Part shown: in pieces, positions 3,299 to 64,000 of the stretch
Position numbering within the stretch: the first letter of the stretch is position 1
How the letters are laid out: each line of letters starts with the position of its first letter
Source: a virus
Reading direction: 5' to 3' (one strand)
Length of the DNA stretch: 64,000 bases
Virus record (IMG/VR): IMGVR_UViG_3300033802_000463
Span: 64,001 to 128,000 of that record
The notes under the pieces: model-generated
What the model saw: only the letters and a program-made list of their open reading frames with translations
Databases searched by the model: none
What the model was told of the DNA's origin: nothing
Program-made: the position numbers and the translations under genes

Positions 3299-3313
3299 GT
3301 TTTGCACCTCCAC

Positions 3314-45720: not shown

Positions 45721-45809
45721 GTGGTAGTAGGTTTCCTTGAGTTGGGTATGGGCGGCGTTCGGAGCCCCACCCACCTCTAATACCAAATACGATGAAAGGA
45801 TGATTTCGC

Positions 45810-50100: not shown

Positions 50101-50540
50101 AAGAGATCGGATTCGTGGCTTACAAGCTCACTTATATTGACTCCAAGTCTGAATCCACTTCTTTCCCGTGGACCGTAGCTAAGCGTCAGTTCCTGGCAAC
50201 TTGCCAAGTTGCGGCCGGCAAAAATCCATCCCGTCTGCCGAAGATCGCAACACGCAAGGCCGACGCGGAGATTAACCTGATGCTGGTGAATCCGAAGCAT
50301 GCAGAGTTGATCGATCGGGCAACGCGCAATGGTTATATGGACGTGAAGTTGGTGCAAGATCAATTAACCGGCAATCTGGTGTATGCCGTTGGCGTCGAGA
50401 ATGTCCTGCTTGGCTATGTATACAACAAGTCGGCCATTTGGTTCTCTGGCGCAGCGCAAGCTCGTGTATATTTCTCTGAACATCGCTACATGTCTCAGAA
50501 GTCGGCTGCAATCAGAGCAACCACTATCAATCTTGCTTAA
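47109..50540 (+). CDS. Single-chain two-barrel RNA polymerase, YonO/eukaryotic-RdRP family
   Basis: GDGLIFV...AWQVRITPFGKG, QRNPLI, catalytic GGADNDGDK, IGLLTN, EIDAAKHG; RBS AAAGGAG. Confidence 0.85.
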   Translation: MQQNQINKFMSAADVLGALASFPGIREGGKNFDLVTSAMTEGNNILNILRDPVGIAGIAPQQAHHFARFVETYKDQLPERLMPKKRDSIQILIADINFMKRDEDGWMVSTFKYNDPTKDNGFDFKSENQMADVFASEPVILQIRRKFNKGEMVVEKRARLMHDIVTVNMNWVLEEGQSEPTAEQLAIQAELMEKGFKIMMNGEAKYCKMIQQTNSQARQVMANFLVCDNEFDAVPEFFMKLGHNLVAYGKKNADGTITIDCTKYMSRIGLSGTSSILCRAIQIGDQIQENGDGSYSILGGNMTMRVQPDVHVMVRIGKYKVINAQTKEFEVFDASEHPVKMVAGDGLIFVNKRMYKALVAEHGVNVDAWQVRITPFGKGLAVYVPGLEKTFEEDIVAFSSAIKGDFRDVVGVHKIQFRVALFNKPAKKIKKYTEYPYQFVHGTSLTAEDMMNLVKPHMEKVKAMLEDPELLMDYLGMDRLEGASDEELDKALVTTLMTFLHEAPFTYKDVQMKKYAMQHIMDMIKNWVVGSIPVEANYKFMVHDPLAILETLRLDRLLPGKLRDEDGDLVIPPNVGLPAGTVVVRDMNDEYLEGEIGMQRNPLIAKSESAVAVAMKDPKYVRVGHFRNLCVMSVHDFNTAKQGGADNDGDKTLVIKDPVIINAIKRNAHLPALLDIHVVEYVDGQPVFDSGCPKSWSAKPENVYSIPAPMIVKQDGFKVTFAKDQYNETLINELHKLTKDYITRTLKPNQIGLLTNYATKLADAVRSLGYQYKLGVDKDGLPLSQKDKQDILNKIKQFEEWIDLLRLCQGWEIDAAKHGGAFWEALENELSFIKNPPEEVGYVSEKTSRTVWYTPDWMAERNNKEFGVYTGSVLSRLFVDMVKERADISKFVDEMDKRSEGANIYGELNAAISMSPERYEMIKAHVVDIDREYRMGMQNLIKKESEAIDRAVALAEGNKHKLEYLMEMVHTKMKEERALLIESCAAQLEKLEDVFAPEEIGFVAYKLTYIDSKSESTSFPWTVAKRQFLATCQVAAGKNPSRLPKIATRKADAEINLMLVNPKHAELIDRATRNGYMDVKLVQDQLTGNLVYAVGVENVLLGYVYNKSAIWFSGAAQARVYFSEHRYMSQKSAAIRATTINLA

Positions 50541-50607: not shown

Positions 50608-51252
50608 ATGGCAACTTTGTACAATCGTGTGGCAGCATGGATCAATCCCAAGCATATCAAGGTCCGCCGGGATGGCAATACGGTATACATCAATATTGCA
50701 GGAAAGGAACACACCATAACATTCTACAATCTTCAAGAGCCGGTGGAGTTGGAAGTCTCCGCCCATGTCGTAGAGTTTGTGAATGTATCCTATTTCCGCC
50801 GCACAGGAAAGCGTATTGAGAGATCCTATTATTCGACGGTGATTGCATTTGAAAATAAACTTAACGAGGATCACCGCATTTCCCCTTACAAGTTGTGCGA
50901 GTTTCGCACTGATATCCAAGACGCATTGAACGCATTAAAGTCGCTTGCCGATCTTCCGATGCCGACTGATAAACAACTTCAGCTTCTTGTTTATCAAGCA
51001 TTGATTCAAGCTTGCAAAGAGAGCAAGTACAAGACAGCTACTTATACTCAATGGGAAAGCACATGGTTTAATCTGCTTGATCAATTCGATATGGTTTACT
51101 TGCCGCGAGACATTTTCAAAACATTAGCTGCAAAGTATCTTGAAGCCGGTTATGCAGATGCTATTGAACGAAATGGTCAGTATGGATCATTTAATGTCTT
51201 CAAGCCATCCCAAAAAGGATTGACTCGTTGGAATCAGCATACAGGTCAATGA
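50608..51252 (+). CDS. Hypothetical protein enclosed with RNAP by the inverted repeat
   Basis: RBS AGGAGG; 214 aa. Confidence 0.75.
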   Translation: MATLYNRVAAWINPKHIKVRRDGNTVYINIAGKEHTITFYNLQEPVELEVSAHVVEFVNVSYFRRTGKRIERSYYSTVIAFENKLNEDHRISPYKLCEFRTDIQDALNALKSLADLPMPTDKQLQLLVYQALIQACKESKYKTATYTQWESTWFNLLDQFDMVYLPRDIFKTLAAKYLEAGYADAIERNGQYGSFNVFKPSQKGLTRWNQHTGQ

Positions 51253-51319
51253 GGCCCTTCGGGCACGGGTGCGGCGGTCATAACTGCAGCTGCCGCACCA
51301 CTGCAACATCGTGACACTT

Positions 51320-51347
51320 GCATGAGTCCCGCCAAGAGCATGAAACC
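51320..51347. repeat. Right arm of 28-nt long-range inverted repeat
   Basis: GCATGAGTCCCGCCAAGAGCATGAAACC. Confidence 0.9.
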
Positions 51348-51813
51348 CAGCCACTGCATATTTGATCCTCTTTATCTCTCCATGACTTCTCCTCTATTTC
51401 TCTCCCCTCTTTCCTCATGATGCTCATCATGCTCATATATCCAATTATGCGAATCATCTCTCCTCTGCCCCATCAACATCAAACCTGAGGTATTTCAGCA
51501 TTATTCTTGCTCCCCTAACCATCTGCTCCCGGAACGGGGTTTTGTAAGCTCCTCCTCCCTCCTCACACTGTTCTTTCACATCATAATAGCTTCTCTTCGC
51601 TGGAAATTTTCTCCCTAAGTTATACCTTCGGCATGATGCTATTCTTATTTATGTTTCATGCATGTGTAATGCGTTACGAATCTCTCCCGTGCTTTATTTG
51701 ATGCTTATAAGTATCAATGTTGCTTGGTTTCGTTCGTGCTATTAGGATGACTAGAGGTGCGCCTGACGGCGCGCTTCACTGCAGATAAATTTTTCTTTCA
51801 AGGAGGAACTACG

Positions 51814-52254
51814 ATGAAAGAAGTTACGATTTACACTGACGGCGCCTGCTCCGGCAATCCTGGTCCTGGAGGCTGGGGAGCCGTTCTAACATATAAAGAC
51901 AAGCAAAAGACGGCTTTTGGCTACGAGCCGCATACGACAAACAATCGTATGGAGCTTGTAGCCGTTATTGAGTCGTTGAAGCTTTTGAACCAACCCTGCC
52001 ACGTCCAAGTGTATAGCGATTCAGCCTACTTGGTGAATTGCTTCAACAACAATTGGATCGAGGGTTGGCAAAAGAACGGCTGGAGAACCAGCAAAAATCA
52101 ACCGGTGGAAAACCGGGAATTGTGGGAGGCGTTGCTTGAACTAATGAAGATTCATCAAGTTGAATACTTCAAAGTCAAGGGGCACTCCCACGTTACATTA
52201 AACGAAATGGCTGATCGGTTAGCGCGTGAAGCCATTAAACGACATCGTTCTTGA
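51814..52254 (+). CDS. rnhA: Ribonuclease HI (copy 1)
   Basis: YTDGACSGNPGPGGWG, NNRMEL, SDSAY, KGH...NEMAD. Confidence 0.92.
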   Translation: MKEVTIYTDGACSGNPGPGGWGAVLTYKDKQKTAFGYEPHTTNNRMELVAVIESLKLLNQPCHVQVYSDSAYLVNCFNNNWIEGWQKNGWRTSKNQPVENRELWEALLELMKIHQVEYFKVKGHSHVTLNEMADRLAREAIKRHRS

Positions 52255-52293
52255 TTTTACTGGCGGCATGTTTTTGCCGCCAGTGTGTGTTTA

Positions 52294-52350
52294 TCTCTGT
52301 CTGCAGAGTAACAGCTGCACTGATGAGTCTTATTGGAGACGAAATAGAGA
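52294..52350 (+). ncRNA. Type III hammerhead ribozyme
   Basis: UCUCUGUC^UGCAG-loop-CUGCA CUGAUGA GUCUU-AUUG-GAGAC GAAA UAGAGA; GUC cleavage predicted after 52301. Confidence 0.9.
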
Positions 52351-52372
52351 ATCTATCATGGAGGCAATGCGA

Positions 52373-52835
52373 ATGGCTGATCCGTCTATTTTTTTCTTAT
52401 CAGAGATTGATTCTGCGAGTTTATATACTCGTGAAAATATTAAACGTGTAAAGGAGATGTTTGTTGAAGGGCTAAAAGCAGATGTAGAATCAAACCATAT
52501 TGATCGTCAATTGGCGAATAAATGGTTTCGTATGATGATTCAGAATAAGATGGCTTTCGCCATTGCCCTTGGGTCCGACTTTAAGGGTTTCCGTGTTGCT
52601 AAGAGCAAGTCAGATTTTCATCCTTATACGGAGAATCTGGCAATATGGCCCAGACAGCTTTTTTTATGATCGTTTGTCTAATTACGATCTTATTTACCAA
52701 GAAGTATATTCATGGAGAGGTGATAAGTTTAAGAGTGACACATTATACTTTATGTCTCGTAAGTTGAGGTTAGATGTTGGTTTGATAGGATCCCCTCGGA
52801 CGATGGTCCGGCCGCCTATTCAATTTGAAGACTGA
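52373..52835 (+). pseudogene. Hypothetical gene apparently frameshifted at a T7 run (52659-52665)
   Basis: RBS GGAGG. Removing one T joins ...WPRQLF to YDRLSNYDL..., which ends at the terminator. Confidence 0.4.
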
Positions 52836-52870
52836 GGAGATATGATTCTTTTATCTCCTCTTTTTTATTT
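52834..52870 (+). terminator. Intrinsic terminator
   Basis: GAGGAGATA/TATCTCCTC followed by TTTTTT. Confidence 0.75.
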
Positions 52871-53025
52871 TCCTTCTCCTGTCCCGCTTCCACTTCACCT
52901 CCATTGAATGATGTTACTTTTTTATGTTCGACGTAAAAGATCATGCCAGGAGCGGCTGACGCCGCATTTCCATCACAGATGTAGGCGAAACTTCTACATC
53001 AATCTTAGTCGTGGAGGTATTGCTT

Positions 53026-53202
53026 ATGGTGGAGCAAGAGATCATGGAAATCATTCCAAGAGGAAACATGAAGCAATCGCAATATGATCTGCTTGTGAAA
53101 CTGATAGGGATCTACTATCGTGCAAATGGATTAATGCTTCACATTGTTCCTGCTCCTGATACACGTAACAAGAAATTGCGATTGATACGTGGGGATAAAT
53201 GA
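53026..53202 (+). CDS. Small hypothetical protein
   Basis: RBS GGAGGT before ATG 53026. Confidence 0.55.
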   Translation: MVEQEIMEIIPRGNMKQSQYDLLVKLIGIYYRANGLMLHIVPAPDTRNKKLRLIRGDK

Positions 53203-53262
53203 TGCATGAATGCCTGACGGCATAATTCATTATCCAGCGTTGATTCACAAGGAGATGATATT

Positions 53263-53493
53263 GTGGAGTTGATCGATCCATGTCGTCGTCTTCATCTGCT
53301 TCGGCCAGGCAACCTGGTTGTAATTCAAGGCACTGTCATTGGCTGTTTAGGTGCGGAAGGAAAAATTGGTGTGATTACCGATGAGCCTAATCAGTCTGGA
53401 TTATTGTCTCATAAGCCCGGTGTGAATGTAAAGCTTGATGCAGGCTTCGTATGGCTTGTCAACAAAGATGCTGTAAAACCTTTTGGCAAGTGA
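53263..53493 (+). CDS. Small SH3-like hypothetical protein
   Basis: RBS AAGGAG; GNLVVI...GKIGVI...VNVKL. Confidence 0.5.
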   Translation: MELIDPCRRLHLLRPGNLVVIQGTVIGCLGAEGKIGVITDEPNQSGLLSHKPGVNVKLDAGFVWLVNKDAVKPFGK

Positions 53494-53517
53494 ATATTGA
53501 GGAAGGATGTGCATGGA

Positions 53518-53952
53518 ATGAAATATGAGATCTATCAGATCAAGGATGAGTATCGCAGGCAATATGGTTTTGCAAACTTGGATATATTGCCGATGAGATA
53601 TAGAGAGGATACGGATCATCCTGTATTGATTTCAAATGGTGTTGTTCCTGTTCTAAATATCGATGCTTATAACAAGGTGTATGAGGGTGATACTGCATCT
53701 ATTGGTGGTATTGATCGTTTTGTTATTAACGATCCGGCCAACCCGATGCATAAGCAGCAAATGAGGTTGCTTGAGCATATGTTTGAAGTGTTTAATCTTT
53801 ATCATCCTTCGGATTATCGCGCCCCCTCTATGAGTGTAGGCGATCTTGTTGTATTGTATCCGTATGATGATAGTAACAGGGAAGCATTCTTTTGCGACAG
53901 CTTTTCCTGGAAACCAATTGAGTTAATGTCCCGCTCCGGGTCATGGAGTTGA
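53518..53952 (+). CDS. YodL-like domain protein
   Basis: YEIYQI...YNKVYEG...FEVFNLYHPSDY...SMSVGDLVVL...FFCDSF. Confidence 0.75.
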   Translation: MKYEIYQIKDEYRRQYGFANLDILPMRYREDTDHPVLISNGVVPVLNIDAYNKVYEGDTASIGGIDRFVINDPANPMHKQQMRLLEHMFEVFNLYHPSDYRAPSMSVGDLVVLYPYDDSNREAFFCDSFSWKPIELMSRSGSWS

Positions 53953-53957
53953 TCATT

Positions 53958-54137
53958 ATGTACAAAGCAACAATTTATTATCGATCGGGTCATACGGCGA
54001 CTATTCGTTGTGACTCTATTTCTCTTGCACGTATGTATCTGTTTGGCCGTGGTGTGGATCATATTGTAATGGCCATGCCCGGCCGCCCCTCTCTCCCTCC
54101 TATTATCCTTCGTCATTCATCCGATTCATGCGGCTGA
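53958..54137 (+). CDS. Small hypothetical protein
   Basis: RBS GGAG; its stop codon is the loop of a hairpin motif copy. Confidence 0.4.
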   Translation: MYKATIYYRSGHTATIRCDSISLARMYLFGRGVDHIVMAMPGRPSLPPIILRHSSDSCG

Positions 54138-54384
54138 TGCCGCTTTTCATTTTGATGTGCTATAATACTGCTTGCATGAGGAGGATACAGAATGTTTAAA
54201 AAGAAACCAACGCTTAATAACGCATGACTGGCAGCCGGTTGATTCCCAAGGCTATGGGATGGAATGCTCCAATTGCGGCAAATACATCTCTGCATTTGAG
54301 CCGGACGCTTGGAAGGCCGGCCAGGAGTCGCTTTGCATCCCGACGGCACGACTACAGAAGAGAAAATACGGAGGTGATATTCAG

Positions 54385-54582
54385 ATGACAAAACCGGAAG
54401 GCGCATATTATTTTGACCAAGAATCAGGACTGTGGGTTACGGATGGAAAGCATGACAAACAGCATTATTTTTGGTATTTGGAACATAGGCTAGGTTTTTC
54501 GCAAGAAGCAATATCTGCCATGAGCGATGAAGATCATTTCAATATGGCAGATATGTACGCGGCTGATTATTTATCATTTTGA
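54385..54582 (+). CDS. Small hypothetical protein
   Basis: RBS GGAGGTG; MTKPEGAYYF... Confidence 0.55.
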   Translation: MTKPEGAYYFDQESGLWVTDGKHDKQHYFWYLEHRLGFSQEAISAMSDEDHFNMADMYAADYLSF

Positions 54583-54600
54583 TGCTTTTGGGCTGATTCC

Positions 54601-54894
54601 ATGCAGTGTTCCGTTTGTCGGAATAAAATTCAGTGTCCTTATACTTCGCTGCGCGGCAAGCTCTTTTGCATGTTTTTCACCAATAAAAATAAAGAGCTTG
54701 TCGCTCGCGGCGTCGTTGACTTCATGTTCATGGTTATGTATGATCAGCTGCCTTCGGATATTCAGAAACGCGTGCAAAAAATCATCGAAGGCAAGATTTC
54801 TCGTTTCGGCGTCTCCTTTGAGGAGATCGTGCAACAATATGCCGATATCGAAAAGACGTACCAGGAGTGGCTATTCAGAGAAAAATATGCTTGA
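54601..54894 (+). CDS. Hypothetical protein
   Basis: 97-aa ORF in the operon. Confidence 0.55.
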   Translation: MQCSVCRNKIQCPYTSLRGKLFCMFFTNKNKELVARGVVDFMFMVMYDQLPSDIQKRVQKIIEGKISRFGVSFEEIVQQYADIEKTYQEWLFREKYA

Positions 54895-54959
54895 TAAGCC
54901 TGTCGGCTTGATTTCTGTAAATGGTTAATGCACACAACATTTAAGGAGGCATATGGTCT

Positions 54960-55400
54960 ATGCATGCAAGATTCAATGCAAAATTCACATGCTGCCCGGA
55001 ATGTTCTAACGTATGGCTTTTACCCGCGTTTGTGAAAGATTCCGATGTTCGATGGAAACTGTGCCCCAAATGCCGCGCAAGAAAGCGTGCGTTTTATGCG
55101 GTATTTTGGGGGAAGTATGTAAAAGCCATGCAAAATGGTGATTTAACCGAAGACGGTCTTATGGTTGCTCGCATCGATGGTGAGCATTACGTTATTGGTC
55201 CTGAAAATACTGTCGGCTTCCGAGGCTTCAGCGGACGCCGCTTTGTCATTCGGTTTACGGTTGGCCCGCATGCCGGCGAGATTGTGGAGACTACGAATCT
55301 GTGGCATCAAGGCACGATCTCACATGGATACGAGAAGATCCTGCATGACAATGCAGTGTTTGTGCCGCAAGAGTATCCTTCGTTGATCTCGGTATCATAG
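54960..55400 (+). CDS. Zn-ribbon hypothetical protein
   Basis: RBS AAGGAGG; CPEC...CPKC; TTNLWHQG. Confidence 0.65.
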   Translation: MHARFNAKFTCCPECSNVWLLPAFVKDSDVRWKLCPKCRARKRAFYAVFWGKYVKAMQNGDLTEDGLMVARIDGEHYVIGPENTVGFRGFSGRRFVIRFTVGPHAGEIVETTNLWHQGTISHGYEKILHDNAVFVPQEYPSLISVS

Positions 55401-55426
55401 CATTTTCAAGCGGCTTACAATGCCGC

Positions 55427-55481
55427 TGCTGTCGTAGGGTTGTGCCCTGCCTGATGATGGCTTCTCTAAGCCGAAACAGCA
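55427..55481 (+). ncRNA. Type III hammerhead ribozyme (extra U after A9)
   Basis: UGCUGUC^GUAGGG-UUGUG-CCCUGC CUGAUGA U GGCUU-CUCU-AAGCC GAAA CAGCA; cleavage predicted after 55433. Confidence 0.88.
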
Positions 55482-55511
55482 AAACGATTATACTATGTGG
55501 AGGTTGATAAA

Positions 55512-55733
55512 ATGCCTTATCAGCATACTTTGGAAGATCGCATTTACATCCTGCAGAAAACCAATCTTCCGGATGATCTTTCCTATATGCTTCAACAGGC
55601 AGATCAGTATTATGTTCAATATCTGGACAAACAAGCTGAAGAGTTGGTTGCTCAAATTGAAAAAGAGTGTGTCGCAAGGAATATCAAATTGTTTAAGCCG
55701 CTTAATTGTTTTGCGGAGCTCATTTACACATAA
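55512..55733 (+). CDS. Small hypothetical protein
   Basis: RBS GGAGGT just downstream of the hammerhead. Confidence 0.6.
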   Translation: MPYQHTLEDRIYILQKTNLPDDLSYMLQQADQYYVQYLDKQAEELVAQIEKECVARNIKLFKPLNCFAELIYT

Positions 55734-55816
55734 TTTTTGTTGAGCATTACAACATGATCTTTTTTTATACATAACAATGAATACCGTAAATATTTCGTTT
55801 GAAAGGATGATTAATT

Positions 55817-55990
55817 GTGCTTCAACGGTTTTTCATTCGTCCGTCTGGATCGGAATTTGCAATTATCGCGGTTGTCGGCGGCGTGGAGACGGAGGTCGAG
55901 CGCGGCGCAAAGGCGCTTATTCGAGGCAAGTTTTTGCATTACGTGAAGAATCGATCGGCACTTATTGAGAAAATTGGTGATCTGGCATGA
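55817..55990 (+). CDS. 57-aa hypothetical protein
   Basis: Hand-translated from GTG after AAAGGA; ATGA overlap with the next gene. Confidence 0.5.
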   Translation: MLQRFFIRPSGSEFAIIAVVGGVETEVERGAKALIRGKFLHYVKNRSALIEKIGDLA

Positions 55991-56160
55991 GGCGTCATCT
56001 TGCTTTTTGGATTGCCGTCGGCCTGTTGCTTCTCTTTACCATCCGCATCTGGCTTCCAGTTCTGATTGGATTGGCGCTTGCTATCATCGCCATTTGCTTT
56101 GTGGTCAAAGTATTTGCAGACGGTTATGATTTATGGAGGACTCTTTCTCGCAAGCGGTGA
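55987..56160 (+). CDS. 57-aa membrane peptide
   Basis: Hand-translated MRRHLAFWIAVGLLLLFTIRIWLPVLIGLALAIIAICFVV... Confidence 0.55.
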   Translation: MRRHLAFWIAVGLLLLFTIRIWLPVLIGLALAIIAICFVVKVFADGYDLWRTLSRKR

Positions 56161-56587
56161 CGCTTGCTTCTTGCCCTCCCCCGGGATCAGACCATTGCAT
56201 CCTATTGGGGCCACCCTGGCCCCCCTTTAAGAGGGCATACTTCCCCCAAAGGTATGAAGGTGCATGTTTTGGAACAATCAGCGATTCTTGATTGACTGTC
56301 ATGCTGCTTTTGCCGTATAGTGAGAAATGCTTCATGGCATCTATCAAGATTCTTTTTAGCGCTGTTCATTTTCCATTTTTGGAATCTTGTTCCATGTTTA
56401 TTCGTGCCATTTCTCACTTGCTTGCTGCATGATTAAAAATGCACCTATAAATTATACATAGCGGAAAACCTGGGGTATTTTAACCCCAGTTATTTCCATC
56501 TGGTATATTTCACAAAATTGTCACATTTTGTTCGCATTTTTTATCTATTATGGCTGACGCCATGTTTCCTTTTGGGGTGAGTTTTCC

Positions 56588-57109
56588 ATGTATGTAATAC
56601 AGTATCGTGATCACGCATCATTCGGTGAACTCCGCGTCGATCAAGTTCAGACTGAATCAGAATTGTACGGATTCTTTCGAGAAGATGGCGGCGCTATCGA
56701 TGTTATTCATTATTGGGAGATCCCTGGTACTGCAAATTTGTTTCGCCTAATTGTTGCAGGCAGCCGCGATTTCAATGATTACCCTCTACTCTGCTCCAAG
56801 CTTGATTATTTGCTTCAGAGACAGCCGTATACAATCATCGTATCGGGCGCAGCTCGCGGAGCTGATTCGCTTGGAGAAAGGTATGCACGAGAACACGGTC
56901 TGCCGATTGATCAATATCCTGCAGATTGGGTCAATTTAGGGAAGCGTGCAGGATATGTTCGAAACGAACAAATGGCGAAAGTGGCGAATGCATGTGTTTG
57001 CTTTTGGGATGGAGTTTCCCCTGGCACAAAAAGTATGATCAAGCTTGCCCGCCAGTATAATTTGGATACGCGCGTGATCATATATAAAAACAATCTTATC
57101 ACAAATTAA
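56588..57109 (+). CDS. SLOG-superfamily (DUF2493/YspA-like) protein
   Basis: LIVAGSRDFNDY...IVSGAARGADSLGERYA...AGYVRNEQM...FWDGVSPGT. Confidence 0.8.
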   Translation: MYVIQYRDHASFGELRVDQVQTESELYGFFREDGGAIDVIHYWEIPGTANLFRLIVAGSRDFNDYPLLCSKLDYLLQRQPYTIIVSGAARGADSLGERYAREHGLPIDQYPADWVNLGKRAGYVRNEQMAKVANACVCFWDGVSPGTKSMIKLARQYNLDTRVIIYKNNLITN

Positions 57110-57126
57110 TTTTTGGAGGCATTTGG

Positions 57127-57660
57127 ATGATACAAAACCCTTCCATGCAACGAGAAGATATTGAACGTTTTCTCTCTATTTGTCGTGAAAGTACGCCGGC
57201 TCTGCTTCAAGCAGCCGGCGTTTTTGTTGATTATTCAGAAGAATCGTTATCGCATTGCGAGGACTTTATCAATGCGATTTATCCGGTTGGACACATCCCG
57301 CATCCAACGACGGTCCTCCCTTTCGGCTATTACTTGGGAGAAACGATCATACGGAACATTCCAGATTCAAAGTGGGATGTTGATACACCAGCTGAAACGG
57401 TTTGGGATATTGGCGTCAAAATTGAAATACCTTTTGCAAGCGAAGACATGCCTCGAACACAAATCGTTCGGCCGTTTATGCGTGCTCAGAAGTTTTGGCG
57501 AGATCGATCGGATGGTCTTCGCGCCATGTACATACTTGTCAATCAATTGTCACTTGGATTTGTTGATCCCACGAAAGCCAAACCTGGCGAATGGATAGAA
57601 TTGCCTGTTGGCATCAAATTCCGTTACACAATTGCAATCAAGGAGGATTTAACAGAGTGA
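57127..57660 (+). CDS. Hypothetical protein (immunity-protein-like pattern)
   Basis: DYSEESL...FGYYLGETI...W; RBS GGAGG. Confidence 0.55.
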   Translation: MIQNPSMQREDIERFLSICRESTPALLQAAGVFVDYSEESLSHCEDFINAIYPVGHIPHPTTVLPFGYYLGETIIRNIPDSKWDVDTPAETVWDIGVKIEIPFASEDMPRTQIVRPFMRAQKFWRDRSDGLRAMYILVNQLSLGFVDPTKAKPGEWIELPVGIKFRYTIAIKEDLTE

Positions 57661-58097
57661 AAGAAGTAACGATCTATACAGATGGCGCATGCAGCGGCAA
57701 TCCTGGCCCAGGGGGCTGGGGTGCCGTTTTAATTTATGGAGAAATAACGGAGCAACTCAGTGGTTACGAACCGCATGCAACCAACAATCGCATGGAGCTG
57801 ATCGCAGTTATTGAATCACTAAAAGCGCTCAAAGAGCCTTGCCGCGTAAAAATCATCAGCGATTCGGCTTATGTCGTCAATTGCTTCAAACACAAATGGT
57901 ACGAATCCTGGATTGCAAAAGGCTGGAAAAACTCTCAAGGCAAGAAGGTCGAAAACCAGGAGCTTTGGGAGGAACTCCTGCATCTGATGACAATTCATCA
58001 GGTATTCTACCAAAAAACAAGAGGTCATGCTGATGATCAGTACAATAATCTAGCTGATCAGCTGGCTCGAAATGCAATTAAACAGCATGGTGCCTGA
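57657..58097 (+). CDS. rnhA: Ribonuclease HI (copy 2)
   Basis: All catalytic motifs present; GTG start after GGAGG. Confidence 0.92.
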   Translation: MKEVTIYTDGACSGNPGPGGWGAVLIYGEITEQLSGYEPHATNNRMELIAVIESLKALKEPCRVKIISDSAYVVNCFKHKWYESWIAKGWKNSQGKKVENQELWEELLHLMTIHQVFYQKTRGHADDQYNNLADQLARNAIKQHGA

Positions 58098-58172
58098 CGG
58101 CACAATTCGCTTCAGATTCCATCAGTTTTCATCAGATCACATCATATTCTATTCAAATTGGAGGTTTTTACC

Positions 58173-58361
58173 ATGAAACTCAGCTATTCCGTAAAAGATT
58201 TGCAAGTGAATATCCCGCTGCCAGAAGAGTTCACCGGTGCAGACGAACTTCTTTCCGTCAACATTCATATTGGCGAATTGAATTATTCTCTTGAAGATGT
58301 GACGGTTACTGATTTGGTCAGTGGCTTGAAGGAGATTATTTCCCTATTTCTTGACAAATAA
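58173..58361 (+). CDS. Small acidic protein
   Basis: RBS GGAGG. Confidence 0.55.
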   Translation: MKLSYSVKDLQVNIPLPEEFTGADELLSVNIHIGELNYSLEDVTVTDLVSGLKEIISLFLDK

Positions 58362-58419
58362 AAACTGGCCGCATTTTCCACTTCTTTGATTCATAACAAG
58401 GAGAGTAGAAGCCATAAAC

Positions 58420-58734
58420 TTGATTGATACAATTCTAAATCATGGGGTCGAGAACGTCTTCTTTCTCGCAAAGGCACGGCCGTTGAGGAAAGTCCTTTTT
58501 GTCTCCTACACATCTTCAAGCGATCCGGCAATTGAAATGATGTGCAAGATCGACACTAGCCGGTATAAGCTCGAAGACCAATACAAGATTACCATTGCTC
58601 CGATCTATGTAGGGTATGCTAAAGAAGATTACTATGTTACTGACTTGCAATCCATGCTGAATCGAGGATATGCCAAAATGTTGGTTCAGCTGCCTGTTGA
58701 GATACCGGCCAGGAAAACACTGCCGGTTATTTGA
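58420..58734 (+). CDS. Hypothetical protein
   Basis: RBS AAGGAG; 104 aa. Confidence 0.55.
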   Translation: MIDTILNHGVENVFFLAKARPLRKVLFVSYTSSSDPAIEMMCKIDTSRYKLEDQYKITIAPIYVGYAKEDYYVTDLQSMLNRGYAKMLVQLPVEIPARKTLPVI

Positions 58735-58835
58735 TTTTCATATTCCCTATTTTTCATAGAAAATATATTCTTATATGCTTATTATTGATGTTTATATATC
58801 ATATGTGTATTTGAATATATTTTCTAATGAACAAT

Positions 58836-58874
58836 GAAATAGGCGACATCCGAATCATGGGTGTCGCCTATTTC
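58836..58874. terminator. Hairpin between convergent genes
   Basis: GAAATAGGCGACATC/GGTGTCGCCTATTTC. Confidence 0.6.
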
Positions 58875-59710
58875 TTAATAAACCATCTTACGAAGAATGG
58901 AAGCGAGTTGATTATCTCCTGTTTCATTTCTTGCCTTAATTGTTTATCTTCCAGTCTTTGATTCAATTGTTCCATCAACACTCTGTCTCGGACTTCAACA
59001 TCTTGCCGCATGGTATTTACGGCATGATCGATGAGCTCCTTTTGCTTCTCATCTGAAGCCATGCTTTGCAAGGCGTTCATTGTTTCTGCTATTTTTTCTA
59101 TTTTTTCTTGCATCTCATCAATCCGGCTATCTCCTGGAAGCATAAGCATCTTCTCTTCCAATCGCTTATCGATGAGTGCGTTCATCCATTCCGTCAATTT
59201 TTGGATTTGTTCCTCGCTGGCTCCAGCGAACGGATCGGCCAGGTTCGTGTCGCGTCTTGGTTCGTCATCGTAGTCATCCCGATCAATGATGCGAAATGCA
59301 TCTGCCGAAACGATGCCAACCAGCTCCGCACAGCGCGACAGTTTGATGTTGTGGTGTTTTCGAAGCAGCAGCGCCATTTTGAGGCGAAAGACGGCTTGGT
59401 AGTCCATGATGACTGTGCGTCCACTCATCCGTGCCTCTATGTAATGGTTGAGCTGCTTTTGCCAGCTCCTCATGGTTGAAGGCTTGCAAAGGAAGTTGAT
59501 CGCCTGCTCATGGGTGCAGTACCACTCTTCAAAATCTGTAGTGGTATAGTCTGCCCCCTCTTTCAGGTTCTCGATGTAGTCGTCAAACAGATATTCAACA
59601 AGATCAAGCTTCACTATGAGCTTGAACAGTGGATCTTGCTTAAATTCTTGGCTCAATCGCTCACTCATGGGCATGCTAAGCGATGATGGTCGAATATGTT
59701 CATCCATCAA
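58868..59710 (-). CDS. MerR-like HTH plus coiled-coil protein (RacA/DUF3967-like architecture)
   Basis: AINFLCKPSTMRSWQKQL HTH; coiled coil; C-terminal amphipathic PFFVRWFIKK. Confidence 0.55.
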   Translation of the reverse strand: MMDEHIRPSSLSMPMSERLSQEFKQDPLFKLIVKLDLVEYLFDDYIENLKEGADYTTTDFEEWYCTHEQAINFLCKPSTMRSWQKQLNHYIEARMSGRTVIMDYQAVFRLKMALLLRKHHNIKLSRCAELVGIVSADAFRIIDRDDYDDEPRRDTNLADPFAGASEEQIQKLTEWMNALIDKRLEEKMLMLPGDSRIDEMQEKIEKIAETMNALQSMASDEKQKELIDHAVNTMRQDVEVRDRVLMEQLNQRLEDKQLRQEMKQEIINSLPFFVRWFIKK

Positions 59711-59956
59711 ATCAGATCACCTCAAATTTTATTCTAACCCAATGTGGCCTGATCTGTCACGATTTAGCTTTGTTTACCTTTTATCATATTTCATCAGATT
59801 TTATCAGGTTTTATTATTCTTTGTTTTTCTATTGTATTCTGATATGTTCTGATTGATTCTGTTAGTTTATGTTTCATTATTTATCCATTTAGAACATATC
59901 AGATCAAATCTGATAATTTTCCGATGAAATCTGATGTGGAAGAGAGGAGGATTTCA

Positions 59957-60556
59957 TTGAAACCGACAACATTGGGTGGAATCTACACCTCAATATTACT
60001 GTTAGTCGGATACGTGTTAAATTATCTTATCGTTCCAATTGCTTTATTATCTGCCGCGGTCGTAATCGCCGCGAGTTACTTTATTTTCAGCCGATTCACA
60101 TGGCAAAAGGATGCCAAAATCGATCAGCTAACCGGCTGCCACAATCGCGCTGCTTTAGAATCCTACCTGGAATCTTTCAACGGTCGGCAAGCATGCGTCA
60201 TGATGATCGACATTGACGATTTCAAGATGATCAATGACACCTTCGGTCATGATGCGGGTGATCGGATCCTCCGTGAGGTTGGCTACTTGCTTTCCAGTTA
60301 CGTGCGACCTGGCGAAGTATATCGATATGGGGGAGAGGAGTTTGCCATCATCATGAAAGATGTTCCGAATCACCATGTGTATGAGATTGCCGACCGGATC
60401 CGGAAAGCTGTTGAGCATAACGTAAACATCAATGGCCATCCGATCACTGTTTCCATTGGCATTGCATGTAGTGTGAATCCAAAAGTAGCACTGAAAGCAG
60501 CTGACGAGTTTCTTTATATATCCAAACGCAAAGGCAAAAACACAATTACCTATTGA
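59957..60556 (+). CDS. Membrane-anchored GGDEF diguanylate cyclase
   Basis: DQLTGCHNR, DIDDFKMINDTFGHDAGD, RYGGEEF, SIGIA; two TM helices; TTG start after GGAGG. Confidence 0.9.
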   Translation: MKPTTLGGIYTSILLLVGYVLNYLIVPIALLSAAVVIAASYFIFSRFTWQKDAKIDQLTGCHNRAALESYLESFNGRQACVMMIDIDDFKMINDTFGHDAGDRILREVGYLLSSYVRPGEVYRYGGEEFAIIMKDVPNHHVYEIADRIRKAVEHNVNINGHPITVSIGIACSVNPKVALKAADEFLYISKRKGKNTITY

Positions 60557-60633
60557 GCCTGACGACTCGCTTCATTTTAGAGAGTCGCAAATGCGGTTCT
60601 TTTTTGATTTCAAGAGAAAGGAGGTTGTTACGA

Positions 60634-61143
60634 TTGGCCGCTCTGTCTGGAAAATTCCACTACGATAAACTCCGTGTGGAAATGTGGGTGTCAGGTACAG
60701 CAGGAGAGGATGGTGCTGGTGGTTATTGCGCTCATTTGCACAGTGTGCTGGATGGGAACAAGTACACCAAAACTATCGCAGGCTTTGGGATTGGCGTGAC
60801 GCCGACTCGAATGACGCTGAAGGCCGTTCTGGAAGGCCTCAAGCAGATCAAGAATAAATGTTTTATCCATATTTACACCGGTATTCCGCAAGTGAGTGTT
60901 GGTTTGAACAAACATATTCATAGCTGGGCTAAAAAAGACTTCAAGCGATTGAATGGCGAAGACCTTCAACATGAAGATCTCTGGCGTCAAATCTACCATT
61001 TGCTTCAGGAAAAGGCGATCAGCTACAAAGTGCATTATTTGGGTGATTCGCCGATACCGGACAACAATGTAATGGTGATTCATACGGCCAGTCAATATGC
61101 CCAGCGCGCCAGAAAAAACTTCATGGAGGTGTCTTTATCTTGA
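60634..61143 (+). CDS. Degenerate RNase H-fold protein
   Basis: Aligns by eye to RNase HI, but the catalytic acidic residues are replaced (WVSG, RMTL, YTGI). Confidence 0.7.
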   Translation: MAALSGKFHYDKLRVEMWVSGTAGEDGAGGYCAHLHSVLDGNKYTKTIAGFGIGVTPTRMTLKAVLEGLKQIKNKCFIHIYTGIPQVSVGLNKHIHSWAKKDFKRLNGEDLQHEDLWRQIYHLLQEKAISYKVHYLGDSPIPDNNVMVIHTASQYAQRARKNFMEVSLS

Positions 61144-61397
61144 ACATGAATCGAATCGGTCCTATTATCGATCGAATTGCCGACAGCAATCGTCTGCTCA
61201 TACTTGTCTTTATTATCATTTTAGGTTTGTCATTGCTTATGGGTATCTATGCAGTCGTTTTGTTTATCGGGATTTCTATCTTGATGTATAGCTACATTCG
61301 CTGGTCGATCAATCAGGAAGCTGCCGAAGAGGAGAGTGAGCTGCATGAAACAAGTCAAAACCACTTGCAACAAATGCAAAACCGAAATCACGCTTGA
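61140..61397 (+). CDS. Small membrane protein
   Basis: Two hydrophobic helices; RBS GGAGGT. Confidence 0.55.
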   Translation: MNMNRIGPIIDRIADSNRLLILVFIIILGLSLLMGIYAVVLFIGISILMYSYIRWSINQEAAEEESELHETSQNHLQQMQNRNHA

Positions 61398-61560
61398 TTT
61401 TACCGGTCTTTCCTATGAAGAAGCGATTCGTCAAGTTGAGCGACTCGATAACCTTCCAAAAGAATGTCCAGGATTTCATGTTGAAATCGGCGGATGGAGA
61501 AAACGCTGGAATATGGATGAAGCCCTTCGGCAGGCTTATCCGGAGCAATACAAAAATTGA
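61345..61560 (+). CDS. Small Zn-binding hypothetical protein
   Basis: CNKC...ECPGFH. Confidence 0.5.
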   Translation: MKQVKTTCNKCKTEITLDFTGLSYEEAIRQVERLDNLPKECPGFHVEIGGWRKRWNMDEALRQAYPEQYKN

Positions 61561-61613
61561 GCCTGACGGCTCGCTTCATTGTAGAAAAATTAATCCGAGA
61601 GGAGATCATTTCT

Positions 61614-61877
61614 ATGCAGAATGTTGCCAATCAAATAATTGCGGCCGGCAGTGCAAAGGAAGTTCGTATGGCTATTTCGTCGCTCACTCCTGAACAACAA
61701 TATGAAGCGCTGAAAATGTCGGCCGAGCAAATTCTCGTCTCTGTTGAAGTCAACATCGCGCAGAAAAATCACCAAATCGCAATTTGGGAGCTGTCCAAAC
61801 TTGCGATTGTGGAAGATGAATTGCTCAAGGCTGAACGCCGCATGAACAACATTGTATCGGCTGGTGTTCACTTCTAA
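61614..61877 (+). CDS. Hypothetical helical protein
   Basis: RBS GAGGAG before ATG 61614. Confidence 0.55.
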   Translation: MQNVANQIIAAGSAKEVRMAISSLTPEQQYEALKMSAEQILVSVEVNIAQKNHQIAIWELSKLAIVEDELLKAERRMNNIVSAGVHF

Positions 61878-62020
61878 TGTTTTGGTTTTTTCTATTCTGC
61901 TTCATTGTTTTATCGGGGCAAATACAGTATCTGCCCCTTCTCTTTATTTTTTACTTCGTGGTCATGGCTTACAAGAAAACGAATTGAACATCATTCAAAC
62001 AAAACAATGGAGGGATTCAC

Positions 62021-63076: not shown

Positions 63077-63113
63077 AAAAAAAGAGAGCAGATTTTCTCT
63101 GCTCTCTTTTTTT
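63077..63113. terminator. Bidirectional intrinsic terminator
   Basis: A7-GAGAGCAGA/TCTGCTCTC-T7. Confidence 0.8.
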
Positions 63114-63321
63114 ATAAAAGATTACCCCCCCAGGGATGCGCCCCCCTCAGATGCAGCGATGTCTTGAAATTTATTTCAACAAGCTGTTATAAATGTATTG
63201 TTGTGGGCCGCTTTCTGATGGTATATTTGTATTTCTGATATATTTCTGCAATAGTTTGGGATTTACTGTGATTTTTCTTTAGAATTTGGTATACTATTTA
63301 TATTGGAAAGGAGGGAATCGG

Positions 63322-64000
63322 ATGATACAAGTGCGAATGCAGTACGGTAATATTTATCTGAAGATTCTCGACAGCATGGAAACATTCGATCATACACTTG
63401 AAAAAGTTCGCATGATTCGAAACCGCGGTTTTAACCTGGAAACCGGCGAATGGATGTTTGACCGGGAATACATCGGCGATTTGCTTGTGCTGTTTGGCAA
63501 TCAGATTACATGGATGACGCCTCTGCACGAAATTGTCAACGGTCTCTCCCTGGATCATGAACTGGTGCAAAAGCATCTTCAATGGGAAGCGGATAACGAA
63601 TTTAAGAACTTTTTGCTGCCCATGTATCCTTATCAGAAAGTGGGCGCGAACTTTTTGATTGACCGAGGCTGCGCAGCAATTTTTGACGGTTGCGGCCTGG
63701 GCAAAACCCCCCAGCTCATAGGCGCATGCGAAAAGCTGTATGAACAGGGACTTGCAAAAAAAATGCTGATTATCACGCTCAGTTCGCTCAAGCGCCAGTG
63801 GGTCAAGGAGATTGAGAAATTTACCGGCAAGCCGGCCATTGCGGTAACCGGCACTCCTTCGAGACGAGCTTCGTTAATCAAAGAGTTTGCGAAGAAGAAA
63901 GATGTGCAGTACTTGGTCATCAATTACGAAATCCTTTGGAACGATACATTGCGCAAGTTGATTAAAAATACACCATTTGATGTGGTAGCGCTCGATGAGG
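63322..64000 (+). CDS. SNF2-family helicase (truncated at window edge)
   Basis: Hand-translated MYPYQKVG...FDGCGLGKT...QWVKEIEKF...INYE...VVALDE. Confidence 0.85.
   Translation, partial: MIQVRMQYGNIYLKILDSMETFDHTLEKVRMIRNRGFNLETGEWMFDREYIGDLLVLFGNQITWMTPLHEIVNGLSLDHELVQKHLQWEADNEFKNFLLPMYPYQKVGANFLIDRGCAAIFDGCGLGKTPQLIGACEKLYEQGLAKKMLIITLSSLKRQWVKEIEKFTGKPAIAVTGTPSRRASLIKEFAKKKDVQYLVINYEILWNDTLRKLIKNTPFDVVALDE

Follow-up and report, generated by a model that had tools for sequence, protein, structure and literature searches.

Repeated hairpin elements downstream of a two-barrel RNA polymerase gene in a viral genome: possible N4-style promoters

The window analysed here is a stretch of 64,000 nucleotides of a viral record of 136,063 bp (IMGVR_UViG_3300033802_000463, positions 64,001 to 128,000). 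Positions are those of the window unless described as genome positions, and positions to the right of the window are given as window equivalents. A gene for an RdRP/YonO-like two-barrel RNA polymerase lies upstream of all the copies in the record of a short hairpin element, which sit in the gaps of the right arm, ahead of tightly packed gene clusters. The polymerase gene and the copies are as follows, with E-values for the elements from a covariance model of the element, here called R1.

47109 to 50540, + strand: gene for the 1143-aa RdRP/YonO-like two-barrel RNA polymerase (Pfam PF05183, 4.2e-9; phrog_8308)
51759 to 51788, + strand: element 1, GCGCC-TGAC-GGCGC, then GC and TTC (E 5e-6)
52952 to 52981, + strand: element 2, GCGGC-TGAC-GCCGC, then AT and TTC (E 2e-4)
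53210 to 53239, + strand: element 3, ATGCC-TGAC-GGCAT, then AA and TTC (E 3.5e-6)
54130 to 54159, + strand: element 4, GCGGC-TGAT-GCCGC, then TT and TTC (E 3e-7)
54896 to 54926, + strand: element 5, AAGCC-TGTC-GGCTT, then GAT (a 3-nt spacer) and TTC (E 9e-5); heads 54960-55400
56550 to 56579, + strand: element 6, ATGGC-TGAC-GCCAT, then GT and TTC (E 4e-7)
58090 to 58119, + strand: element 7, GTGCC-TGAC-GGCAC, then AA and TTC (E 7e-5)
60555 to 60584, + strand: element 8, GAGCC-TGAC-GACTC (one C.A mismatch), then GC and TTC (E 1.3e-6)
61559 to 61588, + strand: element 9, GAGCC-TGAC-GGCTC, then GC and TTC (E 9e-7); heads 61614-61877
65385 (window equivalent), + strand: extra copy right of the window, atypical, with CTC and a T-run in its tail
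68945 (window equivalent), + strand: extra copy right of the window

The GGADxDGD block of the polymerase is invariant in eight homologs, and this is the only polymerase recognised in this phage. A search for T7-like RNA polymerases (PF00940) matched none of four records, and likewise gave nothing in the control genomes. A 2330-aa ORF has a DSDGD motif, and comparison with the polymerase family using hhalign gave it a probability of 0.3%.

The genes that follow the elements are varied. Element 1 heads an RNase H gene at 51814-52254 (Pfam RNase_H, 1.4e-47), whose start codon is 41 nt past the stem, while element 3 heads 53263-53493 and a YodL-like gene at 53518-53952. Element 4 has on its 3' side an extended -10 box (TGcTATAAT) and an 11-codon mini-ORF. 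Element 6 heads a SLOG/YAcAr gene (56588-57109), with the start codon 24 nt past the stem; a terminator-like hairpin lies upstream of it at 56470-56489, and it has an ortholog at position 21140 of the relative L143. On the 3' side of element 8 there is a terminator-like hairpin with a T-run at 60579-60602, followed by a second RNase H-like gene, and the ortholog of this element in the relative G001 (48149) has an identical layout, including the terminator-like hairpin. In elements 8 and 9 the TGA of the upstream ORF overlaps the first two bases of the stem. The copy at 65385 extends to a long stem with a T-run, and is terminator-like, as is its ortholog.

The element consists of a 5-bp stem in which the letters vary but pairing is kept, a loop TGAC, two or three nucleotides, TTC, and a loose ATTTTGATG. 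It was originally described in a sequence-only reading of this DNA, which listed nine hairpins. All nine are present at the positions tabulated above and letter for letter, including the TGAT loop at 54130, the TGTC loop at 54896 and the mismatch at 60555. Also borne out are their single orientation (nine of nine on the + strand), the spacing of TTC from the stem (2 nt in eight copies, 3 nt in the copy at 54896), and the use of the loop TGA as the upstream stop codon in two copies, at 54130 (ORF ending at 54137) and 58090 (ORF ending at 58097). With the two copies to the right of the window, the record contains 11, all on the + strand, and the spacing is 2 nt in 10 of the 11 if the CTC at 65385 is counted. 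The base following TTC is mostly A, but is C or T in about 40% of copies. Upstream of the hairpin no conserved block is seen, either within 8 nt or within 50 nt. RNA contigs compared with this DNA overlap none of the hairpins.

The same reading had suggested comparing the frequency of the motif with that in control sequence. A perfect stem with loop and TTC occurs nine times on the + strand of the whole record and never on the - strand, compared to a mean of 0.05 and a maximum of 1 in 100 genomes simulated with a first-order Markov model and searched on both strands. The 10-mer core occurs four times, with 0.12 expected. A relaxed scan of the window gave five extra matches, three on the + strand (289, 27480 and 41152) and two on the - strand; none of the five has an in-register TTC tail, and three have a stem mismatch.

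Pairing in the stem was assessed by searching the whole record without any condition on the outer stem (C-TGNY-G, with TTC following after 4 nt and a further 2-3 nt). This gave 22 matches on the + strand, of which nine have all four outer pairs, two have three (60555 and an unrelated site at genome 11857) and 11 have none or one, and therefore the pairing of the stem is not a product of the search design. This is the unbiased test of pairing. In a set of 21 copies from the window, the right flank and two relatives, 96.2% of cells are paired compared to 71.2% in shuffles (none of 500 shuffles reached 96.2%), though this figure is inflated because the copies were chosen to have no more than one mismatch. 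The compensatory variation noted earlier at stem positions 1, 2 and 4 is seen in this set as changes on both sides, with all four Watson-Crick pairs at position 2. Mismatched copies in the record and relatives have G.T on the sense strand in two cases, G.T on the template strand in four, and other mismatches in seven, so that neither strand is favoured for G.T. Overall, the element is genuine: it far exceeds chance, keeps to one strand and is constrained in structure.

It is also confined to one part of the genome. R1 finds 11 strong matches in the record, all within genome positions 115757-132943, with one weak match (E 0.38) at genome 74737. There is no strong match in the 115 kb on the left of the record, in agreement with the earlier observation that the structural arm has no clear copy. 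Measured from the end of the polymerase gene, all 11 copies are 1.2 to 18.4 kb downstream.

The sequence-only reading proposed that scanning relatives with a covariance model would reveal whether the element occurs together with the polymerase, and in two relatives it does. In the 76%-identical relative G001, R1 gives 13 strong and three weak matches, and in G002, whose polymerase is 34% identical, it gives eight matches at E<=3.5e-4 together with weaker ones. All are on the same strand as the polymerase gene and downstream of it, and those outside the set used to build the model have perfect stems with new sequence. L084, which falls in the same polymerase clade as G002 in a quick tree, has two copies with the loop TATC. 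More distant relatives have a different version. In G004, whose polymerase is 33% identical, NNSCC-TCC-GGSNN followed by N and TTTGGTGAAA occurs 12 times, always on the same strand and starting just past the polymerase gene, and 11 of the 12 copies are followed by a Shine-Dalgarno sequence and ATG. At the Alicyclobacillus locus L001, a TATC hairpin is combined with a TTTGGTGAA box. In the cultured Bacillus phage 0305phi8-36, our own scan shows NNCGT-TCGC-ACGNN at 19 places in the right arm, each time on the sense strand; its 5-bp stem covaries, the loop TCGC is constant, and a TTTTGTA box follows downstream. In four genomes, hairpin signals are found only downstream of the polymerase gene and on its strand. 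Two of the copies in 0305phi8-36 are upstream of its polymerase gene, so the polymerase gene does not always come first, and the sites may be read by another enzyme. R1 found no match in the 75 kb of SPbeta searched, which included yonO to yonK, and nothing below E 0.7 in the 10-kb flanks of five full-length relatives (L083, L085, L089, L144 and L146). SPbeta is to our knowledge the only phage with a studied YonO. The element is thus conserved with the polymerase lineage, and other versions of a hairpin plus a box replace it in more distant relatives.

The position of the elements ahead of genes is consistent. In this record, G001 and G002, 26 of 35 copies are followed by a Shine-Dalgarno sequence and start codon 24-69 nt past the stem, compared to 670 of 3000 positions drawn at random from the same arm. 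In the copy at 56550 and in its ortholog in L143 the start codon is only 24-25 nt past the stem and the ribosome site comes directly after TTCATTTT, so that any start site must be at or before TTCATTTT. Terminator-like hairpins precede some copies, as at 56470-56489 and at 58385 of G001, implying that re-initiation is needed there. Between 45000 and 64000 there are 35 sigma-70-like matches, with 35.0 expected from shuffles, and the Sigma70_r2 profile matched none of four records. No host-type promoter explains the element sites.

The loops follow a simple rule. On the sense strand they are TGAC, TGTC, TATC, TCC and TCGC, all with T as the first base and C as the last, and the loops on the template strand are therefore GTCA, GACA, GATA, GGA and GCGA, of the form G..A. 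In this record the template loops are GTCA in nine copies, with one GACA and one ATCA; G002 has GACA and GATA, and G004 has GGA. The closing pair is C:G in all copies of these three genomes. According to the available text of PMC13037366, stable DNA mini-hairpins have a G..A loop (GCGNNAGC or GCGNAGC), with a Tm of 72 C tabulated for GCGACAGC, and the hairpin bound by the virion RNA polymerase of coliphage N4, on the template strand, has a stem of 5 bp and GGA or GAA as its loop. For the N4 hairpin to be extruded, the pair that closes the loop must be C:G and the loop itself must have G at its 5' end and A at its 3' end, as described in the accessible part of PMC4496689. GTCA is not among the loop variants named in the available text of either source.

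On the basis of these observations we propose, with a probability of roughly 0.55, that the elements are N4-style template-strand hairpin promoters for the two-barrel polymerase of the phage. The inverted repeat would fold on the template strand as a DNA mini-hairpin whose 5-bp stem is closed by C:G below a G-N-N-A loop. A phage RNA polymerase would recognise the shape of the hairpin and the bases of the loop, and would start its RNA a short way downstream, at TTC or within a few bases of it. The best candidate for this enzyme is the 1143-aa polymerase. Its own gene would have to be expressed earlier, from some other signal, and the product would then switch on roughly a dozen gene clusters of the rightward (early/middle) arm. 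There is a parallel in T7, where gene 1 precedes all the T7 promoters. We favour this reading because of the placement at the heads of clusters, the promoter-like distance, the location linked to the polymerase gene, the swapping of boxes between relatives, and the G..A loop. That the element acts as DNA rather than RNA, that it has a role at a start site, and that this polymerase reads it are all inferred.

The N4 promoters P1-P3, which are read by the virion RNA polymerase gp50, are likewise short inverted repeats with stems of 5-7 bp, in which the stem letters are partly free, the template-strand loop is fixed with a 5' G and 3' A closed by C:G, and sequence conservation extends from the hairpin as far as the start site (available text of PMC4496689 and PMC13037366). 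The G004 version has the N4 loop GGA itself, on a 5-bp stem. However, N4 has three promoters at one genome end while there are at least 11 over at least 17 kb here, and the loop is 3 nt in N4 but 4 nt (GTCA) here. The N4 enzyme is of T7 type, in contrast to the two-barrel RdRP/YonO type of the only polymerase recognised here. Given that the PF05183 protein is the only polymerase recognised, the element would work like an N4 promoter without being a member of that family. A further mark of N4-type hairpin promoters is their dependence on negative supercoiling and SSB.

A parallel in genome plan is 0305phi8-36, a phage of Bacillus thuringiensis, for which Hardies et al. (2007) described 14 phage-specific 21-bp promoter candidates in the right arm and proposed them as targets of gp99 (Pfam05183). 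As far as the available text of that paper (PMC2147016) goes, it has the same layout of a structural arm and an opposed right arm with many small non-coding gaps. The gene for its RdRP-like polymerase is likewise close to where the right arm begins, with a SLOG/DUF1273 gene in the neighbourhood. Its repeated motif is also in the right-arm gaps and on the sense strand, and the 19 copies in our scan presumably correspond to the 14 candidates. Features of the kind used there are found in the present record, namely a gap motif in the non-structural arm, a PF05183 polymerase and no match to Sigma70_r2. The motif sequence, however, is unrelated and has a T:A closing pair, and the resemblance between the two polymerases is remote (E 2e-6 over 84 residues). 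In the available text of Hardies et al. the motif is not called a hairpin ('stem' does not occur, and 'hairpin' occurs once, for terminators). Thermus phage P23-45 also has two-barrel single-chain polymerases with their own promoter motifs, which were mapped by sequencing of start sites: an AT-rich motif for the virion RNA polymerase gp96, fused to the tape measure, and a GC-rich one for the non-virion gp64. In that phage early expression of a polymerase gene leads on to transcription of other genes by its product (bioRxiv 10.1101/2022.12.01.518664, available text). In the present phage the PF05183 polymerase is the only one recognised. The P23-45 text, so far as available, mentions neither 'hairpin' nor 'stem-loop'.

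Some observations do not sit easily with a promoter. An RNA hairpin in a 5' leader would just as well be expected to covary, to keep to one strand and to precede genes. On the same side are the lack of a G.T preference among mismatched copies, the absence of R1 matches in the 75 kb of SPbeta and, below E 0.7, in the 10-kb flanks of five relatives, the two copies of 0305phi8-36 that precede its polymerase gene, and the absence of GTCA from the loop variants named in the available text. The variable base after TTC is unusual for a fixed +1, and the terminator-like hairpin with its T-run inside the would-be leader at 60555 and G001 48149 looks like attenuation or antitermination. The copy at 65385 and its ortholog look like ordinary terminators. 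The main rival is that the hairpin acts as RNA, as a site of protein binding or cutting in the 5' leader or between the cistrons of long rightward transcripts. A protein of the phage or the host would recognise it there and bring about processing, stabilisation or antitermination of the message, much as at boxB/nut or a Cas6-style site. We regard this as possible, though distinctly less probable than a promoter. The covarying stem, fixed loop, single orientation and placement before ribosome sites would fit a protein-binding hairpin, the hairpin is part of the predicted minimum-energy RNA fold in seven of 11 local contexts, the arm is rich in RNA processing (a Hammerhead_3 match is described below), and at 60555 and G001 48149 the hairpin stands about 10 nt before the terminator-like hairpin, as in a nut site. 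Against this, it is the loop complements and not the sense loops that match the rule for DNA mini-hairpins, and we know of no stable RNA loop class that the sense loops UGAC, UAUC, UCC and UCGC match. The scan for sigma-70-like sites between 45000 and 64000 found no consistent upstream promoter to feed such transcripts, some copies come after terminator-like hairpins, and ribozymes already cut between cistrons at other junctions. There are 11-19 sites per genome, each heading a gene cluster, which is unlike nut sites. In lambda and P22 each early operon carries one nut-site boxB, a hairpin with a GNRA-like pentaloop that lies downstream of a boxA and is the binding site of the N antiterminator. 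This boxB resembles the present element in its 5-bp GC-rich stem, small fixed loop, nearby single-stranded block and presence in phage early transcripts. Here, though, the loop is the 4-nt UGAC and not a GNRA-like pentaloop, the conserved single-stranded block is downstream with none upstream, and there are at least 11 sites (11 in 17 kb in this record, and 11-16 per genome rather than one or two). Hence among the three roles offered by the sequence-only reading, the N4-like hairpin promoter is favoured, a processing or protein-binding site is the main competitor, and boxB/nut fits poorly.

Other roles for the element are much less probable. A double-stranded operator for a repressor or activator is improbable, although there is a precedent in SPBRE, a 15-bp element at about ten early promoter regions of SPbeta, a large Bacillus prophage encoding the YonO polymerase, that is bound by the master repressor MrpR (available text of PMC10516654); the copy number is similar, and early genes lie downstream. 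SPBRE is a duplex sequence motif, AT-rich in our own comparison, that is bound by a recombinase-fold repressor, and it has no covarying stem. A palindrome that binds a dimer keeps the letters of its half-sites, whereas here the outer stem letters are not conserved yet stay complementary, in contrast to a conserved 15-bp duplex motif. The block common to three SPBRE-bearing promoter regions of SPbeta, as derived from our own k-mer comparison and not from the published logo, is AT-rich with no hairpin, and R1 has no match in the 75 kb of SPbeta searched. Better operator candidates are also present, in the ATCAGAT/TCTGAT repeats and the TGTAATGCATTACA palindrome considered below. A role of the elements between transcription units, as weak intrinsic terminators or as stop-restart signals, is similarly unlikely. 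A loose consensus scan does flag five of the nine window copies, because a GC-rich stem precedes a T-rich tail, but only the copy at 65385 resembles a real terminator. The tail is broken (NN-TTC-A-TTTT) and not uninterrupted, the G004 version carries TTTGGTGAAA in place of a U-tract, a terminator has no use for a fixed loop sequence, and several copies are 24-40 nt before a start codon, leaving no room for a separate promoter. Least probable of all is a role in replication and not transcription, in which primase would use the mini-hairpins as single-strand initiation signals on the lagging-strand template. Mini-hairpin sequences are found at the priming sites of phage G4 and at ssiA (PMC13037366, available text), but a position 24-69 nt ahead of ribosome sites would serve no purpose in priming, and neither would restriction to a single arm lying past the polymerase gene.

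Several other features of the arm are worth recording. The ATCAGAT/TCTGAT repeats lie around a - strand ORF at 58868-59710 and are possible operators; the ORF encodes 280 aa and has no significant Pfam match. The TGTAATGCATTACA palindrome is found in the relatives and is another operator candidate. A Hammerhead_3 match at 52294-52350 scores 38 bits (E 4e-5), which is below the gathering score. The SSB family is matched weakly in this record (0.0086, below the cut-off), and in G004 at 1.3e-9.

All nine hairpins described by the sequence-only reading are present at the coordinates it gave. They share one architecture: a 5-bp stem N-N-G-S-C, a TGAC loop, the complementary arm, two nucleotides, TTC and a looser ATTTTGATG (alignment A2). 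The exceptions among the nine are one TGAT loop, one TGTC loop and one 3-nt spacer. The record contains two further copies, beyond the right end of the window. It has nine perfect copies, all of them on the + strand, whereas the chance count for both strands together averages 0.05 (100 Markov simulations), and the 10-mer core is found 4 times where 0.12 are expected. A second search, chosen against circularity, used the loop, the closing pair and TTC with no requirement on the outer stem. It returned 22 + strand matches, with outer pairs 4/4 in nine, 3/4 in two and only 0–1 in the other 11. Ten of the 11 matches with three or four outer pairs lie in the right arm; the remaining one (3/4) is an unrelated site at genome 11857. 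Compensatory change at stem positions 1, 2 and 4, also noted from the sequence alone, is borne out, and position 2 has all four pairs. Because the outer pairs split into two groups and the stems change on both sides, selection acts on the structure of the stem and not on its letters.

The 136,063-bp IMG/VR virus record, of which bases 64001-128000 form the window, has a completeness estimate of 69%. Long − strand ORFs occupy window 1-46000, and from about 45800 onward the genes run rightward on the + strand. Two large genes bear on which polymerase might read the element.

47109-50540, + strand: polymerase gene, the first large gene of the right arm, 1143 aa; Pfam PF05183 at 4.2e-9; phrog_8308
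Genome 60321-67313 (window 1-3313 plus 3.7 kb to the left), − strand: 2330-aa ORF (L192), with a DSDGD motif at residue 1869

PF05183 is the family of eukaryotic-type RNA-dependent RNA polymerases. This match, that to phrog_8308 and a GGADxDGD block invariant across the polymerase homologs (n=8) mark the 1143-aa protein, on its sequence, as a single-chain two-barrel polymerase like SPbeta YonO and 0305phi8-36 gp99. The 2330-aa ORF has homologs of 2267-2325 aa in three relatives (G002-G004). It shows no profile similarity to the polymerase family (hhalign probability 0.3%), and has no Pfam family and no PDB relative, and it is therefore not called a virion polymerase here. No Sigma70 region 2 was found in any of the four records searched, and sigma-70-like matches in the right arm are at the shuffled expectation. 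The 214-aa gene that follows the polymerase gene was considered for a conserved cofactor role and set aside, having no match in the relatives G001-G004.

Neither megablast of window 51000-62000 nor tblastn of the polymerase gave a match in the phage collection, and a single-protein polymerase query found nothing among viral contigs. Related loci from genomes, metagenomes and IMG/VR were obtained using an alignment of polymerase homologs (A1) as query; a 76% relative (L143) was reached via IMG/VR. Polymerase clades were read off a quick tree. The closest polymerase homolog (76% identity) carries the source name Paenibacillus sp., and the ribosome sites are strong and of AGGAGG type, which together point to a Firmicutes host.

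From 21 copies of the element we built a covariance model, R1, and ran it on whole records. Conservation of the element among relatives, which the sequence-only reading proposed to check, holds for part of them: there are matches in the record itself, G001 and G002, and nothing significant in G003 or G004.

Matches to the covariance model R1
G000 (this record): 11 strong matches
G001 (provirus, polymerase 76% identical): 13 strong and 3 weak matches
G002 (228.8 kb, CheckV estimate 100% complete, polymerase 34% identical): 8 at E<=3.5e-4, plus weaker ones

No significant match lies upstream of the polymerase gene or on the strand opposite to it. Matches outside the training set pair perfectly in stems whose sequence is new, third-pair changes included (GTCGC, GCCGC). 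The loops in G002 are TGTC or TATC, and a locus from its polymerase clade (L084) has two TATC copies. Several relatives have no element in the flanking sequence searched, and for five loci (L083, L085, L089, L144 and L146) hairpin-flank enrichment and 8-mer counts were too noisy to define a motif.

Other relatives carry other combinations of hairpin and box. In G004 (215.9 kb, terminal repeats, polymerase 33% identical) the TGAC element is absent, and there are 12 same-strand copies of NNSCC-TCC-GGSNN, one base and TTTGGTGAAA. They start just past the polymerase gene, and a ribosome site and start codon follow 11 of the 12. At the Alicyclobacillus locus L001, the TTTGGTGAA box is coupled to a TATC hairpin. 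Bacillus thuringiensis phage 0305phi8-36, whose gp99 is distantly similar to the polymerase here (E 2e-6) and whose arm layout is like that here, has 19 copies of NNCGT-TCGC-ACGNN with a TTTTGTA-like box downstream, all on the right-arm sense strand. For this phage, 14 '21-bp phage-specific promoter candidates' have been published, with gp99 proposed as their reader (Hardies et al., 2007, PMC2147016); the sections of that article drawn on here do not term them hairpins. We infer that the 19 TCGC copies match these 14 candidates.

Copies of the element occupy the larger non-coding gaps, at the head of tightly packed runs of genes that include RNase H, YodL-like, SLOG/YAcAr and second RNase H-like proteins. 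A ribosome site and start codon lie 24-69 nt past the stem for 26 of 35 copies in three genomes, compared to 670 of 3000 random same-arm positions; the other nine copies have a longer leader, or structured non-coding sequence next.

On the basis of these observations, we hypothesise that throughout a lineage of large Firmicutes phages and prophages, early/middle transcripts begin at template-strand DNA mini-hairpins, read by their shape by a single-chain two-barrel RdRP/YonO-type RNA polymerase. We give this a probability of about 0.5. Paenibacillus-type proviruses would stand at one end of the lineage and the cultured Bacillus phage 0305phi8-36 at the other, and the specificity of the reader would reside in the loop (GNNA or GNA) and the short downstream box, both co-evolving with the enzyme. 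All copies are downstream of the RdRP-like gene in four genomes (G000, G001, G002 and G004), just as T7 promoters are downstream of T7 gene 1, and this genomic arrangement points to the RdRP-like polymerase as the probable reader. Against so simple a picture, two of the 0305phi8-36 hairpins precede gp99. Several observations count against promoters in general: about 40% of copies have a pyrimidine right after TTC, the orthologous pair at 60555 and G001 48149 has a terminator-like hairpin inside the would-be leader, one copy and its ortholog resemble terminators, and the element is absent from the stretch of SPbeta searched and from the searched flanks of several relatives. Among the pieces listed from two metatranscriptome runs, cover comprises 54194-54631, 54900-55202, 58907-59715 and the gene from 63322. 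The listed RNA contigs do not overlap a hairpin, the nearest (151 nt, depth 2) beginning at 54900, inside the element 54896-54926, and they are thus neutral on the start site there.

The alternative that deserves most attention is that the element acts in RNA, as a site for binding, cutting or antitermination. A hairpin ahead of genes would serve either purpose, and the loops provide a clue. In all versions the sense-strand loop has T as its first base and C as its last, and therefore the template-strand loop runs from G to A: GTCA, GACA, GATA, GGA and GCGA, with a C:G closing pair for the first four. The part of PMC13037366 used here describes unusually stable DNA mini-hairpins, GCGNNAGC and GCGNAGC, held by a sheared G-A pair, lists GCGACAGC at 72 C, and has N4 mini-vRNAP binding a single-stranded promoter with a 5-bp stem and a GGA or GAA cap. 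Extrusion and stability of the N4 hairpin need a C:G closing pair and a loop with 5' G and 3' A, according to the portion of PMC4496689 consulted. By resemblance, the G..A rule for template loops would speak for action at the DNA level. We know of no stable RNA loop class that matches the RNA forms of these loops. We hold an RNA-level site to be possible but less likely. G.T wobble asymmetry between the strands was also considered as a discriminator; the mismatched copies are too few and show no trend.

The remaining explanations account for less. Since the letters of the stem vary freely, an SPBRE-like duplex operator is unlikely; the comparison made here was of k-mers in three SPbeta promoter regions, not with the published SPBRE sequence. 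In 75 kb of SPbeta searched with R1 no element was found (best E 2.3 and 4.2). SPbeta has a 1.68-kb non-coding gap between yonN and yonK (L176 9153-10833, − strand), the reported place of the YonO start site. A terminator would suit the appearance of the copy at window-equivalent 65385 and its ortholog; for the version in G004 this explanation fails. A priming signal would leave unexplained why the element sits ahead of ribosome sites.

The hairpin promoter proposed here would work like the N4 early promoter. Unlike N4, the phage has no recognised T7-type polymerase, and the element would thus not be a member of the N4 promoter family. Its place is with the promoter candidates put forward for 0305phi8-36 in 2007; what the present analysis contributes is their recognition as hairpins, the loop rule for the template strand and the exchange of loop and box from one lineage to another. 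In the literature searched, no account of a hairpin promoter for a two-barrel phage polymerase was found, and to our knowledge structure-read DNA promoters have so far been demonstrated only for the T7-like enzyme of N4. If the proposal is true, the N4 strategy was re-invented convergently by an unrelated polymerase fold, one common to cellular RNAPs and eukaryotic RNAi polymerases, in which structure-read promoters would have arisen independently, and the YonO family would gain its first defined promoter. The proposal is directly testable, with an element of 30 nt, a single-protein enzyme and a cultured phage, 0305phi8-36. The natural hairpin-plus-box versions, three or more, would provide ready-made orthogonal polymerase/promoter pairs.

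A separate, strongly conserved element of about 100 nt (window 45684-45790, + strand) precedes the polymerase gene by 1.4-2.8 kb in this record and nine relatives, whose polymerases are 31-41% identical, with one at 76%. It reads as a palindrome CCCTATATAGGG, an A-run, TTGCG.G.GGTA and, further on, GCGTTCGG.GCCCC, and nothing in Rfam matches it at E<=1. Two possibilities are a structured RNA and a promoter from which the arm is first turned on.

Position of the upstream conserved element in the nine relatives
L001 8164; L083 8400; L084 7397
L085 8680; L089 7195; L143 8832
L144 8154; L145 7352; L147 8201

Within the 400-nt non-coding leader of the polymerase gene, 46729-46771 reads ATGCC-TGACG, 18 nt, GGCAT, with no TTC tail, and is possibly a degenerate or expanded-loop copy of the hairpin. 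Directly past the hairpin at 54130, 54144-54227 holds an extended -10 box (TGcTATAAT), a strong ribosome site and an 11-codon mini-ORF, possibly a host-type promoter and leader peptide overlapping the phage element. The sequence TGTAATGC recurs in three relatives (L001 1065-14675; L084 790-20205; G002 near 125190 and 114310), frequently in the form of the perfect palindrome TGTAATGCATTACA and frequently right behind a -10-like box; it looks like a duplex operator separate from the hairpin element. The SLOG ortholog of L084 was considered as a leaderless gene starting right after TTC, and was rejected: its true start is the ATG inside TGTAATGC, with a ribosome site upstream.

The right arm has three other features of note.

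52294-52350, + strand: Hammerhead_3 match in the interval separating RNase H from the gene after it; 38 bits, E 4e-5
58868-59710, − strand: 280-aa ORF, the sole sizeable − strand ORF of the arm, with a metatranscriptome contig over it
63080-63115 and 63286-64000: two-way terminator, then a predicted ordinary extended -10 promoter and a 629-aa gene (63322-65211 window-equivalent)

The Hammerhead_3 score is below the gathering score of 48.5. The 280-aa ORF has no significant Pfam match and its flanks (58100-58150 and 59720-59950) contain many ATCAGAT/TCTGAT repeats; together they look like a lysogeny repressor with its operators. The 629-aa gene has the deepest cover among the listed pieces of the two metatranscriptome runs (word depth 22.5 and 7.7), and is probably expressed from the prophage.
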